A stretch of 64,000 bases of DNA, from positions 64,001 through 128,000 of the IMG/VR virus record IMGVR_UViG_3300029305_001452. The stretch is one strand, 5' to 3'. This DNA comes from a virus (taxonomy: Duplodnaviria > Caudoviricetes). The translations under genes were made by a program, and so were the position numbers. Shown piece after piece: positions 6,048-23,379 of the stretch. The notes below the pieces were generated by a model. It saw nothing but the letters and a program-made list of their open reading frames with translations, was not told the origin of the DNA and made no database searches. The stretch's first letter is position 1; each line of letters begins with the position of its first letter.

Positions 6048-7694
6048 ATGCAGAAGAAATGGGTAGTTAAAAGCGATTGTCGTGGTATGACAACAAATGA
6101 AATTATAAATACAATTTTAGAGGATAGAGGAATAGAAAATATACATTCTCTACTATATCCAAATGAAGATTATCTTATTCCATTTGAAAAAATGAAGAAT
6201 ATAGATAGAGCAGCACAAATTATTACCAAAAATATAGAAAATAATGGTAGTTTTTTTGTGCATTTTGATACTGATACAGATGGAGTATCAGCAGGATCGA
6301 TTGCGGTTAGATGGTTAAAGAATCATACAGATAGAGTTTATTATGGAATTAACCAGGGCAAAGAACATGGTATTGCAAAGTTGGATTTATCCATATTGGA
6401 TGGCATAGATGTTTTATGGATTGTAGATTCTATTGAAACAAAAATGTTTCCATATGAAAAAGTGTTGGAAGTAGGGGTAAAACATATTATTATCACGGAT
6501 CATCACCTAGTTTCTAAGTCTATGCAAAAGCAAATGGAGAGAACTGGTGCAATTACTCTTGTAAGTTCAGCCGTAGACTATCCAAATCCTGCTCTGAGTG
6601 GTAGTGCAACAACATGGAAACTGTGTGCGTATATGGATTGGATAGAGCTAGATGATTTTAGCGATGACTTAGTTGACCTTGCTAGTACGGGTCTAATTGC
6701 AGATATGGTTGATATTAGTGCCGAATCACTAGAAAACAGATATATTTGTTATAAGGGATTTAATAATCAAGTCAATCCAGCACTTAAGAAAATTAATGGC
6801 TCTTATGAGTTTAATAGCCAAGCCGTTTCATTTGGTATAGCACCGTTGGTTAATGCAAGCAACCGTATGAATGAAAATGAAAAAGCGGTAGAACTGTTCC
6901 TATCTGAAGACTCCAAGGAAATCACTAGGCTTGTTAACGACCTAAAATCTTGTAAGGAATATCAGAATATAGAAATCGCAGATGTTATGCCAATTCTAGA
7001 AGAACAAGCAGAGTCACAAATGGATAAAAAGGTAATGTTTTTCTTTGTAGAAACCAATGCAGAAGTGAAAGGTTTAATTGGTAATAAGCTTCTTGAAAAG
7101 TACCAAAGACCAGTTATTATATTAGGAAACAGAATGGAAATTGATGAAGAGACCGGCGAGGTTGGAAAGCATGAATTCTTTGGCAGCGCGCGTGCTGTTG
7201 GTGTTAAGGATTTTAAGAAATATGTTGACGATACCGGACTTGTGTCTAGCGGTGGTCACGAGAATGCATTTGGTTTGTGGTTTGATGCCGAGGTCTTGGA
7301 AAACTTTCAAAATGCACTTGAAGAAGCACTTAAGGGTGTTGAGTTTGTACAAGAAACTATTATTGATATTCAGATTAATCAAGAGCAAATTACAGACGAT
7401 TTAATTAAACAAATAAAAATGTTAAATAGAATCTCTGGACAAGGTTGGCCTCAGATTTCTGTTATGGTAAGTGGCATTGAAGATTATGAAATTGGAGCTA
7501 TGAGTGGTGGTAAACACTTGAAGCTTATTGCCGATGGTGGTAAGACATTATTTATTAAATGGAATTTCAACGGAAATTGGGATCAGTTTAATGGTTCAAT
7601 TAGTGCTATTGGAAGTTTAGATAGTGGATGTTTTGGAAGAACTTATTATAGACAGTTAATTATGAATGATTGGAGAGTTGATGATGAGATATAA
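6048..7694 (+). CDS. recJ: RecJ-like ssDNA exonuclease (DHH family)
   Basis: DTDTDG, TDHH, GSAR and GGHENAFG motifs. Confidence 0.9.
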   Translation: MQKKWVVKSDCRGMTTNEIINTILEDRGIENIHSLLYPNEDYLIPFEKMKNIDRAAQIITKNIENNGSFFVHFDTDTDGVSAGSIAVRWLKNHTDRVYYGINQGKEHGIAKLDLSILDGIDVLWIVDSIETKMFPYEKVLEVGVKHIIITDHHLVSKSMQKQMERTGAITLVSSAVDYPNPALSGSATTWKLCAYMDWIELDDFSDDLVDLASTGLIADMVDISAESLENRYICYKGFNNQVNPALKKINGSYEFNSQAVSFGIAPLVNASNRMNENEKAVELFLSEDSKEITRLVNDLKSCKEYQNIEIADVMPILEEQAESQMDKKVMFFFVETNAEVKGLIGNKLLEKYQRPVIILGNRMEIDEETGEVGKHEFFGSARAVGVKDFKKYVDDTGLVSSGGHENAFGLWFDAEVLENFQNALEEALKGVEFVQETIIDIQINQEQITDDLIKQIKMLNRISGQGWPQISVMVSGIEDYEIGAMSGGKHLKLIADGGKTLFIKWNFNGNWDQFNGSISAIGSLDSGCFGRTYYRQLIMNDWRVDDEI

Positions 7695-19248: not shown

Positions 19249-19366
19249 AGTAAGTGATACTTAAATACTGCCTCAAAGGATTAGCCTTTCAGGAGACGGT
19301 GCCTGCACCGACTCTGTTTACTGGTGTAGATGCCGAAGTACAAGGTGCAGTAGCCAGCAATAATAT

Positions 19367-19442
19367 GCGGTAGTAGTTCAATTGGTGGAGCCCCAGATTT
19401 CCAATCTGGCTGCTGCGAGTTCGAGTCTCGTCTACCGCTCCA
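19367..19442 (+). tRNA. tRNA-Gly(TCC)
   Basis: cloverleaf, loop TTTCCAA, U73, CCA. Confidence 0.92.
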
Positions 19443-19619
19443 GTAGAGAGAGTCTACTTAAAAGGTCAGCAACAAGATTGTCTGACGCAACGTTGAAACA
19501 AATAGTCCGGGCCAACTTCGGTTATTTGTGGAGTTCATTGAGGGTTTGATGCCATCCACAAGTTGGCTAGACAAAAGTCGAAAGAAAAGCATCAGTCTAC
19601 GAAACGGAGGATATTGCCT

Positions 19620-19667
19620 ATGATTGAATGCGTAAAATCCAGCAAGGAGGAAACTCCTCCAGCATAG
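19620..19667 (+). CDS. candidate 15-aa micropeptide MIECVKSSKEETPPA
   Basis: GGAGG RBS 9 nt upstream; paralog of the same length at 22836. Confidence 0.4.
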   Translation: MIECVKSSKEETPPA

Positions 19668-19709
19668 TAGCGGGTTTCGCCGTTCCCACCAAAAACGGCG
19701 AGTTAATAT

Positions 19710-19798
19710 GGCGGGTTAATTCGGACGGCTCCGAACCTTGTCTTGAAAACAAGTGGTACCAGGGATGGTATGGGGATCGACACCTCAGCCCGTCGCCA
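19710..19798 (+). tRNA. atypical tRNA-Ser(TGA), possibly 8/4 fold
   Basis: loop CTTGAAA, long variable arm, G73, CCA; 5-bp D stem; T loop ATCGACA. Confidence 0.75.
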
Positions 19799-19803
19799 TA
19801 TAT

Positions 19804-19893
19804 GGAGAGTTACCCAAGTGGTCAAGGGGGCAGTTTGCTAAACTGCTAGGGGTTTAAAAGCCCGCGAGAGTTCGACCCTCTCACTCTCCGCCA
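19804..19893 (+). tRNA. tRNA-Ser(GCT)
   Basis: class II cloverleaf, loop TTGCTAA, G73, CCA. Confidence 0.93.
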
Positions 19894-20007
19894 TACCCCG
19901 TACATACCTGGGGTTGCATCGTGTATAAGTCTCGCATAACACTACTTATCTTGTGATGAGTTGACTGAATAAAGGTGTTATTTATCTTAAAGAAAGGAAA
20001 ATATAAA

Positions 20008-20247
20008 ATGAGACTAAAGAGCATTAATGAAGTTAATGATTTTCTAGCAGTAGTTGACTCTTGCAACGGTGATGTTTGGCTAGAATCTCAGTATGGTGAT
20101 AGATTTAATCTAAAGTCAAAACTGTCACAGTATGTTGCTATTGGCGCACTACTAAGTGATAGTCAGGAAGAACTAGAATTGTTCTGCTCTAAGGAAGACG
20201 AAGATAAGTTCTTTTCTTATTTTAGAGAGCATCCTGGTGTGAATTAA
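20008..20247 (+). CDS. small HPr-like protein
   Basis: AGAAAGGA RBS; FLAVVDSCNGDVWL..GDRFNLKSKLS resembles the HPr fold around Ser46. Confidence 0.55.
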   Translation: MRLKSINEVNDFLAVVDSCNGDVWLESQYGDRFNLKSKLSQYVAIGALLSDSQEELELFCSKEDEDKFFSYFREHPGVN

Positions 20248-20261
20248 GTAACACCATATAT

Positions 20262-20336
20262 AGCCCCGTGGCCAAGCGGCAAGGCGAAGGACTTTGACTC
20301 CTTTATTCACTGGTTCGAATCCAGTCGGGGCTGCCA
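20262..20336 (+). tRNA. tRNA-Gln(TTG)
   Basis: cloverleaf, loop CTTTGAC, CCA. Confidence 0.93.
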
Positions 20337-20340
20337 TAAC

Positions 20341-20414
20341 GGAGGATGTGGTGTAATGGTAGCACGCGAGTCTTGGGGTCTTGAAGCGCAGTTCGAATCT
20401 GACATCTTCCACCA
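20341..20414 (+). tRNA. atypical tRNA-Pro(TGG)
   Basis: GGAGGATG/CATCTTCC 8-bp acceptor, shortened T stem, loop CTTGGGG, ACCA. Confidence 0.65.
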
Positions 20415-20437
20415 CAAAAAATAATTTGTCAAACCTC

Positions 20438-20466
20438 TTGACAAATCGCAAAATATATGATATAAT
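20438..20466 (+). promoter_or_regulatory. sigmaA-type promoter
   Basis: TTGACA-17-TGaTATAAT. Confidence 0.8.
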
Positions 20467-20525
20467 CCAGACACTTAAAAGAAAACAACACAAAATTAAT
20501 GGATGAATGAACGAGGTGATGAAGC

Positions 20526-21329
20526 TTGATGGAATATTATACAAGCTCATCTGAACAAATTCGACAAGATACATGTGATGAGGTAGAATATGTAGAAATT
20601 AAAAATCCATTTGGTTTTATTTATATTACAACTAATTTGATAAATGGTAAAAGATATATTGGACAAAGAAAGTTTTCTGATGGGTGGACAACATATCTTG
20701 GAAGTGGAAAGAGATTTAAAACGGCTCTGAAAAAATATGGTAGAAAAAATTTTGTTAGATTAATAGTTGATATAGGCTATTCTCGTGAAGAACTAAATGA
20801 TAAAGAAATTAGTATAATAAAATTTTTAAATGCCGTTGATAGCAGAAATTTTTATAATATATCAGAAGGCGGAGAGATAAAAGGCAAAAGTGGAAAAGAT
20901 GCATACTGGTATAATAAAAAAATTCCACAAGAAAGCATAGAAAAGGCAAATTTAAAAAGATATAAACCTGTTTACCAGTTCGACTTAAATGGTAATTTTA
21001 TTAAGCGTTATGAGTCCGTAACACATGCTGCAAAAGAAAATAATCTTAGCAAACAAGGAATAAGTAAGTCGTGTAATGATGATAGTAAAACATGCGGTGG
21101 TTATTTTTGGTCATACAGTGACAATATTGGCTTAAGAAAATATGATCCTACCAAAAATCATAAACCAGATGAAGTATATCAATATGATTATGATGGTAAG
21201 AAATTAATTAATATTTATATATCTGCAAAAGAGGCAAGCGAAAAAACTGGAATAGCTACATACAATATATATGCTTGTCTTTCTGGTAAGAGAAAACATG
21301 CTGGAAATTTTACTTGGAAAAAGGAGTAA
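20526..21329 (+). CDS. free-standing GIY-YIG homing endonuclease with two NUMOD1-like domains
   Basis: GFIYITTNLINGKRYIGQ..YLGSG; repeats VYQFDLNGNFIKRYES / VYQYDYDGKKLINIYIS. Confidence 0.85.
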   Translation: MMEYYTSSSEQIRQDTCDEVEYVEIKNPFGFIYITTNLINGKRYIGQRKFSDGWTTYLGSGKRFKTALKKYGRKNFVRLIVDIGYSREELNDKEISIIKFLNAVDSRNFYNISEGGEIKGKSGKDAYWYNKKIPQESIEKANLKRYKPVYQFDLNGNFIKRYESVTHAAKENNLSKQGISKSCNDDSKTCGGYFWSYSDNIGLRKYDPTKNHKPDEVYQYDYDGKKLINIYISAKEASEKTGIATYNIYACLSGKRKHAGNFTWKKE

Positions 21330-21336
21330 TTAAATT

Positions 21337-21993
21337 ATGAGTACAAAAGAAACATGCACTATCCACAAGGCACTTTCCGAACTGAAGACTATTGATGACC
21401 GTATCATCAAGGCCATCCGTAGTAACACCTATGTACTAGCTGTTAAGCATTCAGCAGAGAAGATTAACGGTGTGAAGGTTGACACCTGCAAGGAGAATAT
21501 GAAGAGTGGCTATCAGAAGGTTACCGACCTAATAGCTCGTCGTGTTGCAATGAAGAGAGCAGTTGTTCTTTCCAATGCAACCACTAAGGTTAAGGTTGGC
21601 AATAACGAATACACCGTGGCCGAGGCAATTGAGATGAAGAATCACGGTATGGAGTTCAAGAAGACTCTACTACAGTATCTATATACTGCATATGGTTCTG
21701 CTCAGAACGAGTTCAATAAGAACAACGATGAGGCACTTGAAAAGAAGGCAGAGCAGTATGTTCTCGCAGTGATTGCTGCACAGCCCAAGGACTCTAAGAT
21801 GTCTGTTGATAGCGAAGCAATGAAGGCACTTCGTAAGACATACATCGAGAACAACACTTATGATTTGCTTGATCCTCTGAATGTAGCTAAGATCATGGAA
21901 GAACTTGATTCTGAAATCAACGAGTTTGAAGCTGAAATTGATGCAGCACTGTCTGTTTCCAACGCACTAACTGTGATTGAGTTCGAGTATTAA
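21337..21993 (+). CDS. helical protein resembling the DIP1984/septicolysin-like family
   Basis: TIHKALSELK, VLSNATTKV..YTVAEAIEMK and IDAALSVSNALTVIE patterns; family recognised from memory. Confidence 0.55.
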   Translation: MSTKETCTIHKALSELKTIDDRIIKAIRSNTYVLAVKHSAEKINGVKVDTCKENMKSGYQKVTDLIARRVAMKRAVVLSNATTKVKVGNNEYTVAEAIEMKNHGMEFKKTLLQYLYTAYGSAQNEFNKNNDEALEKKAEQYVLAVIAAQPKDSKMSVDSEAMKALRKTYIENNTYDLLDPLNVAKIMEELDSEINEFEAEIDAALSVSNALTVIEFEY

Positions 21994-21997
21994 TTAA

Positions 21998-22420
21998 TCT
22001 GCTTGCTGCTTTTCGAAAACCTTAAACGACTACTTATCTCTTCTTTTTTAATCATTTAGAGTGATATTAATAAGTTAAATAAAATGATTACTAAACAACT
22101 TTATGTACTTGAAATACATAAAACTCTTTGCCTAAGGGTTATAAATAATAAAAGATATGATAAATTAAGATGATCATATAATTATTAATTAATTGTAACT
22201 GTAAAGCTTAAAGTTAAAAATTCAAGACTTAAGGTTCAAGGATCAAAGTTTTATTTTGGTCAAAGGTCGTTTATTAAAGTAGTAAAGAGGGCTAAGAAGT
22301 TATAAATAATTGAATATTATGCGGAGCCCACAAAGTTTTACAAAATCCACGGTTAAAGGTTTGGGTGAGTGGTCAAGGCCCAAAGGTGAGCCTCGTGGCT
22401 GGAAAGTAGCAAGCACCAGA
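21998..22420 (+). ncRNA. putative ~415-nt structured ncRNA with heptamer repeats
   Basis: 16-bp terminal stem 22000-22015/22400-22415 with 3 G-U pairs; further long-range helices; 7 x 7-nt repeats. Confidence 0.7.
22202..22250 (+). repeat. 7-nt tandem repeat, approx. YAARGTT x7
   Basis: TAAAGCT TAAAGTT AAAAATT CAAGACT TAAGGTT CAAGGAT CAAAGTT. Confidence 0.8.
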
Positions 22421-22549
22421 TAAAAATAATAAATGTTGAGTAGTGAGTATAAAGCCATATTGAGTATGCCACAACGTACAAACTCAAGAAAACAGTGAAG
22501 AGCTGGATAACCTTCTGTACAAAGGTTGAATTGAGAGTGGCAGAGTTTA

Positions 22550-22625
22550 GTCCAAAGATGGTGTAAGGGTAGCACACAGAAGGGTAGGCCGGCGAGGTAC
22601 TGTTCGAATCAGTTGAGGGCGACCA
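22550..22625 (+). ncRNA. degenerate tRNA-like element (D and T arms, no clear anticodon stem)
   Basis: GGTGTAAGGGTAGCAC D-like arm, ACTG-TTCGAAT-CAGT T arm, ACCA end. Confidence 0.45.
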
Positions 22626-22835
22626 AAAAGAAAACTCTTAAAAGTACAGAGATATGAAAAAACGATGTAACAAATGAGAACTTGGTCGGTAGAGATTAAT
22701 GATTAAAGATAGACCGTTGGTGAGTCATGCGCAGACAAATCCAACCATCGTTCCCATAGATGAAATTTCTATGGCTCAATGAATTACAAATAACATACGA
22801 AAGTGTGTTAAATAATCCAAAGGAGGACTTTGCCT

Positions 22836-22883
22836 ATGATTGCATTCGCTAAATCCACCTCGGAGGATACTCCAATCGGCTGA
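22836..22883 (+). CDS. candidate 15-aa micropeptide MIAFAKSTSEDTPIG
   Basis: AAGGAGG RBS; paralog of 19620-19667. Confidence 0.4.
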   Translation: MIAFAKSTSEDTPIG

Positions 22884-22922
22884 TTGGGTTCCTGGGGCAA
22901 GAACTGAAACTGCCCCTCATAT

Positions 22923-23000
22923 TGCGGAGTAGACAAGAGGTCTAAGTCGCCAGCCTCATAAGCTGGAAATCGTTGGTTCGAATCCAACCTCACGCAACCA
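22923..23000 (+). tRNA. tRNA-Met(CAT), fMet-like 3' end, bulged acceptor stem
   Basis: loop CTCATAA, ...CGCAACCA. Confidence 0.8.
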
Positions 23001-23003
23001 CAT

Positions 23004-23093
23004 GCCGCAGTGGTGGAATAGGTAGACACCCGGGACTTAAAATCCCGTGAGGCTAAACCCCTCGTACCGGTTCGACCCCGGTCTGCGGCACCA
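23004..23093 (+). tRNA. tRNA-Leu(TAA)
   Basis: class II cloverleaf, loop CTTAAAA, A73, CCA. Confidence 0.93.
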
Positions 23094-23147
23094 CCTGAAC
23101 AAATGGCATCGTGTTATGTGTGGCTGACCAACCTTAAGGTCATATAT

Positions 23148-23223
23148 GCCCCAGTAGCTCAACTGGCAGAGTACTTGATTTGTAATCAAGATGTTGCAGG
23201 TTCAACTCCTGTCTGGGGCTCCA
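23148..23223 (+). tRNA. tRNA-Thr(TGT)
   Basis: cloverleaf, loop TTTGTAA, CCA. Confidence 0.93.
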
Positions 23224-23349
23224 TACTAAAAACAAATCCTGTCGGCAACACTAGAATTATAAATAAGCTAAAGTGCAAGGTTCATGCCCTAGAAAATTAA
23301 ATATAGCTACTAGACAGCATGCCACATCCCGTGCTTCTGTCACTATAAG

Positions 23350-23379
23350 GCACCGGGCAAAACTCGGTGCTATTTTTTT
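23350..23379 (+). terminator. terminator closing the tRNA array
   Basis: GCACCGGG-CAAAA-CTCGGTGC followed by TATTTTTTT. Confidence 0.8.

Follow-up and report, generated by a model that had tools for sequence, protein, structure and literature searches.

Within a 64,000-nucleotide stretch of a Caudoviricetes genome (bases 64001–128000 of IMG/VR record IMGVR_UViG_3300029305_001452, which is 140 kb long and 87% complete; hereafter 'the window'), two spacers between tRNA genes end in the same module of about 100 nucleotides (nt). The module consists of a GGAGGA Shine-Dalgarno (SD) sequence, a spacer of 7–9 nt, an ATG, an open reading frame (ORF) of 12–16 codons with the core E-[ED]-x-P-P-x-stop, and hairpins that we refer to as HA, HB and HC. 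Its start signals and frame are conserved in other phage tRNA arrays, as is the pairing of HA and HC. We conclude that the module is probably a translated mini-cistron that would be cut out of its transcript by tRNA processing and whose RNA structure is also under selection. A phage tRNA array is commonly treated as a list of tRNAs; this one and about 35 relatives add a conserved, apparently translatable mini-gene which, if translated, would be among the shortest conserved phage genes.

Two inter-tRNA spacers share a 3' module

An earlier reading of the window, made from the letters alone (the sequence-only reading), had described the spacers at 19443–19709 and 22626–22922 as paralogous elements. 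We located both spacers at these coordinates and found that only their 3' ~100 nt are alike; the 5' halves are not paralogous, that of copy 1 containing a drum RNA and that of copy 2 a different structured RNA. The two modules are:

19602..19701, + strand: module copy 1 (c1 type); 93 bits with covariance model R1; alignment A3 and pair counts
22818..22916, + strand: module copy 2 (c2 type); 95.8 bits with covariance model R1; alignment A3

Two exact occurrences of a 28-nt core of the 3' block were counted in the window (19614–19641 and 22830–22857), where 100 shuffles gave an expectation of 0, and the complete 140-kb record holds no further one. The paralogs are identical over a 21-nt core, and the remainder of the module differs by ~40%. 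Two further likenesses had been proposed between the spacers. The shared CTTAAAAG is at chance level, since an exact match at least as long arose in 89 of 200 shuffles, and the 13/15 match between AACGTTGAAACAAAT and AACGATGTAACAAAT is marginal, being only weakly unusual (5 of 200 shuffles).

In copy 1 the SD (19606–19611) stands 8 nt ahead of a 15-codon ORF at 19620–19667, which encodes MIECVKSSKEETPPA and ends in tandem TAG TAG. HA (19646–19657) has the form GGAG-GAAA-CUCC, HB (19659–19674) holds the stop in its loop, and HC lies at 19678–19700. Copy 2 is laid out in the same way, with an SD at 22822–22827, again 8 nt from the ATG, a 15-codon ORF at 22836–22883 that encodes MIAFAKSTSEDTPIG and ends in TGA, and hairpins at 22862–22873 (HA, GGAG-GAUA-CUCC), 22872–22887 (HB) and 22894–22916 (HC). 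The strong SD with its ATG, both ORFs, and a closing GC-rich hairpin before the next tRNA had all been noticed in the sequence-only reading, and all are present as described; the hairpin ends 6–10 nt ahead of the next tRNA or tRNA-like gene.

Past the hairpins comes a short AU-rich linker, mostly with an AUAU end, and then the next tRNA begins. The module forms a self-contained cassette between tRNA genes, with a variable RNA cargo on its 5' side. No Rfam 15 family matched 19598–19709 or 22818–22922, even at E<=5, and frames of 12–16 codons of this type, together with their hairpins, escape gene callers and Rfam. Full-text literature searches found no description of SD-led mini-ORFs between phage tRNA genes.

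The cassette recurs beside tRNA genes in rumen and gut phages

Homologs of the element, whose existence the sequence-only reading had left to be established, are numerous. With pattern scans and covariance model R1, which was built from alignment A3, at least 36 distinct variants were collected from rumen and gut phage contigs, namely viral contigs, metagenome contigs and one contig of a metagenome-assembled genome (MAG). The loci returned by one highly degenerate pattern were filtered through R1, and R1 matches inside protein genes (L143, L161, L193 and L214) were discarded. The aligned set referred to below has 27 sequences.

All 36 variants lie within or beside tRNA arrays, and the cassette is always co-oriented with the tRNAs. 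It was seen 12–50 nt past one tRNA and 5–10 nt before the next, and no promoter or terminator was seen between it and its flanking tRNAs. In four loci (L041, L046, L066 and L104) the cassette is the sole content between two tRNAs, and in L104 the SD begins just 12 nt past the CCA of the preceding tRNA. This anatomy would fit a release by tRNA processing, as had been suggested. The present genome and three related records have two copies each, one of c1 type and one of c2 type. Complete relatives of 158–166 kb have zero copies, and a large sister group retains only the last hairpin before the tRNA.

Such a patchy distribution among close relatives, together with the variable cargo 5' of the module, the SegE-like GIY-YIG and HNH endonuclease genes in the same array, and the identity of the paralogs over the 21-nt core in contrast to the rest, could also be expected of a DNA-level element. 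The core would in that case be a site for recombination, for a homing endonuclease or for the boundary of cassettes, through which tRNA and noncoding RNA modules move between phages, and ORF and hairpins would be side effects. We regard this as very improbable: the cassette is strand-specific, its hairpins are preserved by compensatory changes that are meaningful only in a transcript, frame and stop are maintained, and in distant members the core diverges while the ORF persists.

The reading frame is maintained

The sequence-only reading implied that homologs should keep the ATG and the frame, and they do. SD and ATG were present in 36/36 variants, including nine that came from the covariance model or from patterns leaving the start region unfixed. 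The spacer between SD and ATG changes by single bases, whereas between the ATG and the EExPP core only whole codons are gained or lost: the core begins at residue 10 (32 variants), 7 (three, L155, L135 and L209) or 11 (one, L063), with 9, 6 and 10 residues ahead of it, respectively. The aligned sequences had no stops in codons 2–14 and zero indels in codons 1–14, and indels are found past the stop. The length shared by the two window copies is roughly kept (12–16 codons) in 25/36.

In its fuller form the conserved core of the peptide is [A/S]-E-[E/D]-x-P-P-x-stop. The diprolyl motif x-P-P-x was found in 32/36 variants, in most of them behind two acidic residues (G-G-N or G-D in L007, L020 and L033), and the residue directly preceding PP is mostly T, N or S. 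The stop falls one codon past PP in 22/36 and is TAG, TAA or TGA by lineage, tandem TAG TAG being frequent in c1 copies. Ser4 is encoded by AGC, TCA or TCT. Five divergent members, L091 (MKRSAEYSMEDSPPALLN), L063 (MRNAFMIINAEENPPI), L155, L135 and L209, have lost the nucleotide core at the ATG and keep SD, ATG, frame and EExPP-x-stop. For the ORF frame pN/pS was 0.52, while the two other frames gave 2.05 and 0.95, and replacements were milder than those produced by random bases at the same sites (BLOSUM permutation, p = 0.03), though RNA pairing confounds both measures.

An SD core precedes 59% of the long ORFs in the window, compared with a background of 7.6%, which indicates that the host initiates translation SD-dependently. 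Opening the start region of the module costs about 7 kcal/mol (7.1, against 6.1 for shuffled controls), and we saw selection neither for an open nor for a closed start.

RNA structure is conserved over the same nucleotides

The conservation could also be purely structural, as the sequence-only reading had itself allowed. The module would then be a noncoding RNA made of hairpins P1, HA, HB and HC, in which 'SD', 'AUG' and 'ORF' are parts of the fold and the open frame is incidental; it might serve as a protein or ribosome decoy, as a processing or stability element, or as a 3' handle for cargo RNAs such as drum. Several features of the alignment argue for selection of this kind. HC was 100% paired, with compensatory changes at 4/5 pairs, and HA, the GGAG-loop-CUCC hairpin within the ORF, was 83% paired and covaries: in L020 and L033 a change of Glu10 to Gly (GAG to GGG) is accompanied by a change of ACT to ACC or AAC, so that the hairpin is preserved at the expense of the amino acid. 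HB is formed in most copies, in shifting registers. The GGA of the SD is able to pair with an AAUCC box in 27/27 aligned sequences, and in some c2 copies the stretch from SD to AUG can be buried in a 12-bp helix. The position of the stop is variable, and second codon positions are nearly as variable as third ones (entropy 0.95 versus 1.12).

A fold alone explains the pattern of length changes poorly, since the region between ATG and core gains or loses whole codons and the spacer next to it single bases, and it gives no reason for three different stop codons at the same codon, for a pN/pS that is lowest in the ORF frame, or for divergent members that retain SD, ATG, frame and EExPP-x-stop without the nucleotide core. 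Moreover, only strong masking would keep an exposed GGAGGA-8nt-AUG from being translated in a host that uses SD sequences, and no such masking was seen; nor does the module match an Rfam family. The in-frame length changes and the pN/pS ratio thus weaken the purely structural account and the covarying GGAG/CUCC hairpin strengthens it; on balance we consider it somewhat unlikely, and prefer a translated mini-cistron whose RNA is constrained as well.

Translation of the frame has points of its own against it. The double changes in HA clearly reflect RNA-level selection within the ORF, with the peptide paying one Glu. In 11/36 variants the original stop is lost and the products run to 18–31 residues, their tails reading through HB and HC, which is odd for a peptide of precise function; the two ORFs' equal length was not kept in these. 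The pN/pS of 0.52 and the p of 0.03 are weak signals, with three frames only for comparison, and the closeness of second- and third-position entropies points the same way. The codons for E-E-x-P-P (GAGGAnnnnCCnCC) are self-complementary by nature, and a hairpin of SD/anti-SD type might have given rise to the peptide motif as a side product. Because some of the variants were collected with patterns that held GGAG..GCCTATGATTG constant, the invariance of that core is partly an ascertainment effect. The cassette is dispensable, because complete close relatives are without it. Finally, no protein gene lies downstream for a classical leader-peptide role, a tRNA following HC by 5–10 nt.

RNAalifold, run on the mixed alignment of c1 and c2 modules, recovered only HC and two short invariant helices because the registers of the two types differ, and an all-against-all covariation scan mostly reflects differences between the subfamilies. 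We considered HC as an intrinsic terminator in this phage and rejected this, as it has no U tract and was not called by the terminator scan. It may instead be the 3' cap that remains after RNase P cleavage.

With its flank (window 19674–19701), the c1-type HC can be written GUUU-S-GCCGUUC-Y-C-NNN-AAAAACGGC-S, the two outer S positions covarying. Hairpins of this type, with the same stem and loop ends, also occur in 8 unrelated viral contigs (loci L105–L114) of 32–55% GC, where ~0.01 chance matches were estimated. The genes 5' of them are unrelated (P3 capsid, RecT, AAA ATPase), and some of these hairpins have a T run; no Rfam match or tRNA was found near them. The HC type looks like a widespread family of sequence-specific hairpins.

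Both copies lie in promoter-led tRNA units

ARAGORN called 14 tRNAs, all on the + strand and spanning 17849–23223 of the window, in a region broken up by an HNH gene, a SegE-like GIY-YIG gene and a 218-aa ORF. The signals and the genes that bound the two elements are as follows:

17735..17763, + strand: consensus sigma-70/sigmaA-type promoter, 12/12 matches, TG-extended -10, upstream of the first tRNA block with copy 1
19367..19442, + strand: tRNA-Gly(TCC), encoded CCA; 5' boundary of element 1
19710..19794, + strand: tRNA-like gene adjoining module copy 1; 40.9 bits with the tRNA-Sec model, under its cut-off of 47; not called by ARAGORN
20438..20466, + strand: second consensus promoter, 12/12, TG-extended; heads the unit of the SegE-like GIY-YIG gene, the 218-aa ORF, a long noncoding stretch, copy 2 and three tRNAs
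22548..22625, + strand: tRNA-like remnant, canonical T arm, CCA end; 5' boundary of element 2; no ARAGORN or Rfam call
22923..22995, + strand: tRNA-Met(CAT); 3' boundary of element 2
23349..23371, + strand: intrinsic terminator, 9-bp stem and T run; ends the second tRNA unit and is the sole strong intrinsic terminator found

A scan found no terminator-like site between the first promoter and 20414. Given this placement of promoters and terminator, element 1 belongs to a promoter-to-tRNA unit and element 2 to a second unit, closed by the terminator at 23349–23371, and each copy is co-oriented with the tRNAs of its unit. The consensus promoters point to a Bacillota host. A genome scan for the module returned a single 4-kb contig, which is binned in a yak-cecum Bacteroidales MAG; we take it as evidence of habitat, not of host.

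Both spacers had been described as starting right after a CCA end. For spacer 1 this is the CCA of a real tRNA-Gly, but the CCA before spacer 2 belongs to the tRNA-like remnant, whose counterpart in L018 does score as a tRNA (45 bits). Downstream, tRNA-Met(CAT) is the usual partner of c2 modules in relatives. The tRNA said to follow spacer 1 is represented only by the below-threshold, tRNA-Sec-like call at 19710–19794. This gene has a long variable arm; its D stem, 6 bp with a loop of 4 nt, is Sec-like, and its anticodon is, by inspection, UGA (Ser). It is 82% identical to DNA of Prevotella Lak megaphages; it may belong with the noncanonical cloverleaf tRNAs of PMC5389517.

The SegE-like gene (20526–21329) encodes a free-standing GIY-YIG/NUMOD endonuclease and, with the HNH endonuclease gene (18445–18993), recalls the seg genes of the T4 tRNA cluster.

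A candidate mechanism and its relation to known systems

We propose that the ~100-nt mini-cistron is transcribed with the tRNAs of its operon from the consensus host-type promoters. Cleavage by RNase P where the downstream tRNA begins, combined with 3' maturation of the tRNA upstream of the cassette, would then free a small RNA of 115–300 nt, its length depending on the 5' cargo, which is drum in copy 1, another folded RNA in copy 2 and almost nothing in some relatives. The freed RNA would carry a canonical Bacillota-type ribosome-binding site and be capped at its 3' end by HC, and ribosomes would load on it and translate the frame. The selected output would be either the short acidic Pro-Pro peptide or the act of translating; in the latter case a ribosome might be slowed where the acidic, Pro-Pro and stop codons overlap the SD-like GGAGGA in HA. 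The module may act through a trans-acting peptide, by parking a ribosome or stabilising the RNA, or purely as RNA. If the frame is translated, the arrangement would be a bacterial-virus case of a tRNA-punctuated mRNA, and its Pro-Pro core would point to ribosome pausing.

Parts of this scheme have precedents. In mitochondria, mRNAs are punctuated by tRNAs that bound them, and are freed by RNase P and RNase Z. In Bacillota, a ribosome bound or stalled near the 5' end protects an RNA, as with the Bacillus 5' stabilisers STAB-SD and the ermC leader. With these two cases the module would share a mechanism by analogy only, there being no sequence relationship. Phage tRNA clusters also contain RNAs other than tRNAs, namely the T4 species 1 and 2 RNAs (rnaC and rnaD), the stable RNAs of the T5 tRNA region, GOLLD and ROOL. 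As proposed for the module, they share a transcript with the tRNA genes between or near which they lie, and tRNA-processing enzymes presumably release them; unlike the module, which has a conserved ribosome-binding site and frame and no homology to them, they are noncoding. The lambda bar minigenes exert their effect through translation itself, by peptidyl-tRNA drop-off. Bar and other toxic minigenes (PMC2490762) resemble the module in being phage-borne, SD-driven mini-ORFs that start AUG-AU(U/A), but bar-type minigenes have 2–8 codons, compared with 12–31 codons and a conserved C-terminal core here.

Proline-containing leader ORFs and arrest peptides, such as MgtL/MgtP, the EF-P-dependent X/PP/X stalls and the RAPP type (PMC12856214, PMC3641672), can also be compared with the module. 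They too are very short ORFs with a strong ribosome-binding site, an acidic and Pro-Pro core near the N-terminus and the stop, and hairpins directly downstream. The module, by contrast, lacks a protein gene behind it as well as a terminator U tract and a masked ribosome-binding site, and its E-[ED]-x-P-P is not among the characterised arrest motifs (PMC12856214). Still, an acidic Pro-Pro stretch within the first 14 residues, near a stop and over an SD-like hairpin, resembles conditions that slow or destabilise ribosomes (PMC12856214; bioRxiv 10.1101/2021.02.02.429294).

A special case of the translated mini-cistron would be a sensor that acts in cis within the tRNA operon. Ribosomes would pause or abort at the acidic Pro-Pro-stop frame as a function of EF-P, prolyl-tRNA or their own state, which would remodel HA, HB and HC and thereby set the stability of the adjacent tRNA precursor or its processing by RNase P; alternatively, a parked ribosome would block 5'-3' decay. 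In favour of such a sensor, acidic residues and Pro-Pro fall within the first 14 residues and are followed by an immediate stop in most variants, the SD-like GGAGGA and the hairpin occupy the same codons, and the cassette always adjoins the 5' end of a tRNA. Ribosomes stall on X/PP/X motifs and become destabilised on acidic N-terminal ones, an effect on which the MgtL leader relies (PMC12856214; bioRxiv 10.1101/2021.02.02.429294). However, HC is without a U tract and there is no downstream ribosome-binding site to mask, so neither classical mode of attenuation applies. The residue before PP is mostly T, N or S, contexts that may not stall strongly; the distance from stop to HC is not conserved, extended variants reading into or through HC; and the known arrest motifs, RAPP being an example, do not include this one. 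We therefore hold a sensor of this kind to be unlikely. More doubtful again is that the cassette, as a translation-sensing or ribosome-parking device, couples the translation state of the host (EF-P, prolyl-tRNA, ribosome integrity) to the stability or maturation of both the neighbouring tRNA and a 5' cargo RNA such as drum.

The upstream halves carry different RNAs

The cargoes that precede the two modules are:

19443..19487, + strand: two small leader hairpins before drum, at 19443–19457 and 19464–19487, by inspection
19488..19597, + strand: drum RNA (Rfam RF02958), full length (model positions 1–112); 69 bits against a gathering cut-off of 43, E 7e-12
22626..22817, + strand: structured RNA 'X'; 7-bp closing helix AACGAUG/CAUCGUU and three hairpins

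The second leader hairpin shows a compensatory change of T-A to C-G in L007. Drum stands upstream of the c1 module in the window and in L007, L033 and L048; modules without it occur in L016, L020 and L021. The motif was described by Weinberg et al., 2017, with a Rho-independent terminator after it (PMC5737381), and its UGAA/GGA segment, which folds as a k-turn (PMC8191799), is included in the match at 19488–19597. Here drum makes up only the 5' part of copy 1, is not part of the shared block and is absent in copy 2. It lies within a tRNA operon, and where a Rho-independent terminator would be expected it is followed 8 nt later by an SD and a mini-ORF; no such terminator was found after 19488–19597, the next hairpin with a T run being at 23349. 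Drum, whose function has been open since 2017, is thus placed directly upstream of a ribosome-binding site on the same putative processed RNA, an arrangement that would make a simple reporter system for its role.

PF18813 (the PBECR4 nuclease) was not found in the 140-kb, 87% complete record. That the micro-ORF is the leftover of a PBECR4 gene therefore seems improbable, the more so as the module is also found without drum.

RNA X folds with z = -3.5, and its consensus fold has 3 compensatory pairs across the window, L018 and L045. It is conserved in the latter two and absent in L007 and L040, where the module follows other sequence. We also rejected the idea that this 5' part of copy 2 is a degenerate drum: there was no match at E<=10 in searches with the 140-kb record and with 206 nt, and the region has a consensus fold unlike that of drum, although a few short collinear similarities to drum are left unexplained.

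In L007 the c2 module directly follows sequence equal to window ~22395–22417, and window 22418–22805 is accordingly an insertion relative to L007. The insertion brings the tRNA-like remnant and the ~190-nt RNA X, and is common to L018 and L045; L040 differs there. Before it, 21994–22417 is a long noncoding stretch 3' of the 218-aa ORF with syntenic matches in L007, L016 and L023, and at its start (22002–22090) is a RAGATH-27-like match of 45.5 bits, below the cut-off of 76. On the copy 1 side, an AAUCUAC box right 5' of the SD (window 19594–19605) is conserved in c1-type and 12-codon-type modules, with or without drum, and could pair with upstream segments that differ from phage to phage.

Other RNAs were seen in the arrays of relatives. 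In L007 (5440–5552, - strand), L016 and L021, a tRNA-like element of ~113 nt follows the c1 module; it combines an acceptor GAAGCAG...CUGCUUCACCA with a canonical T arm and escapes both ARAGORN and Rfam. L033 has a GOLLD-like RNA in its array (6176–6668; 134 bits, cut-off 150). At L050 1743–1812 and at L130 1709–1784 and 5979–6053, the arrays of relatives hold a Pistol ribozyme that scores above its cut-off (61.6 bits) and tRNAs with anticodons CTA and TTA that read amber and ochre.

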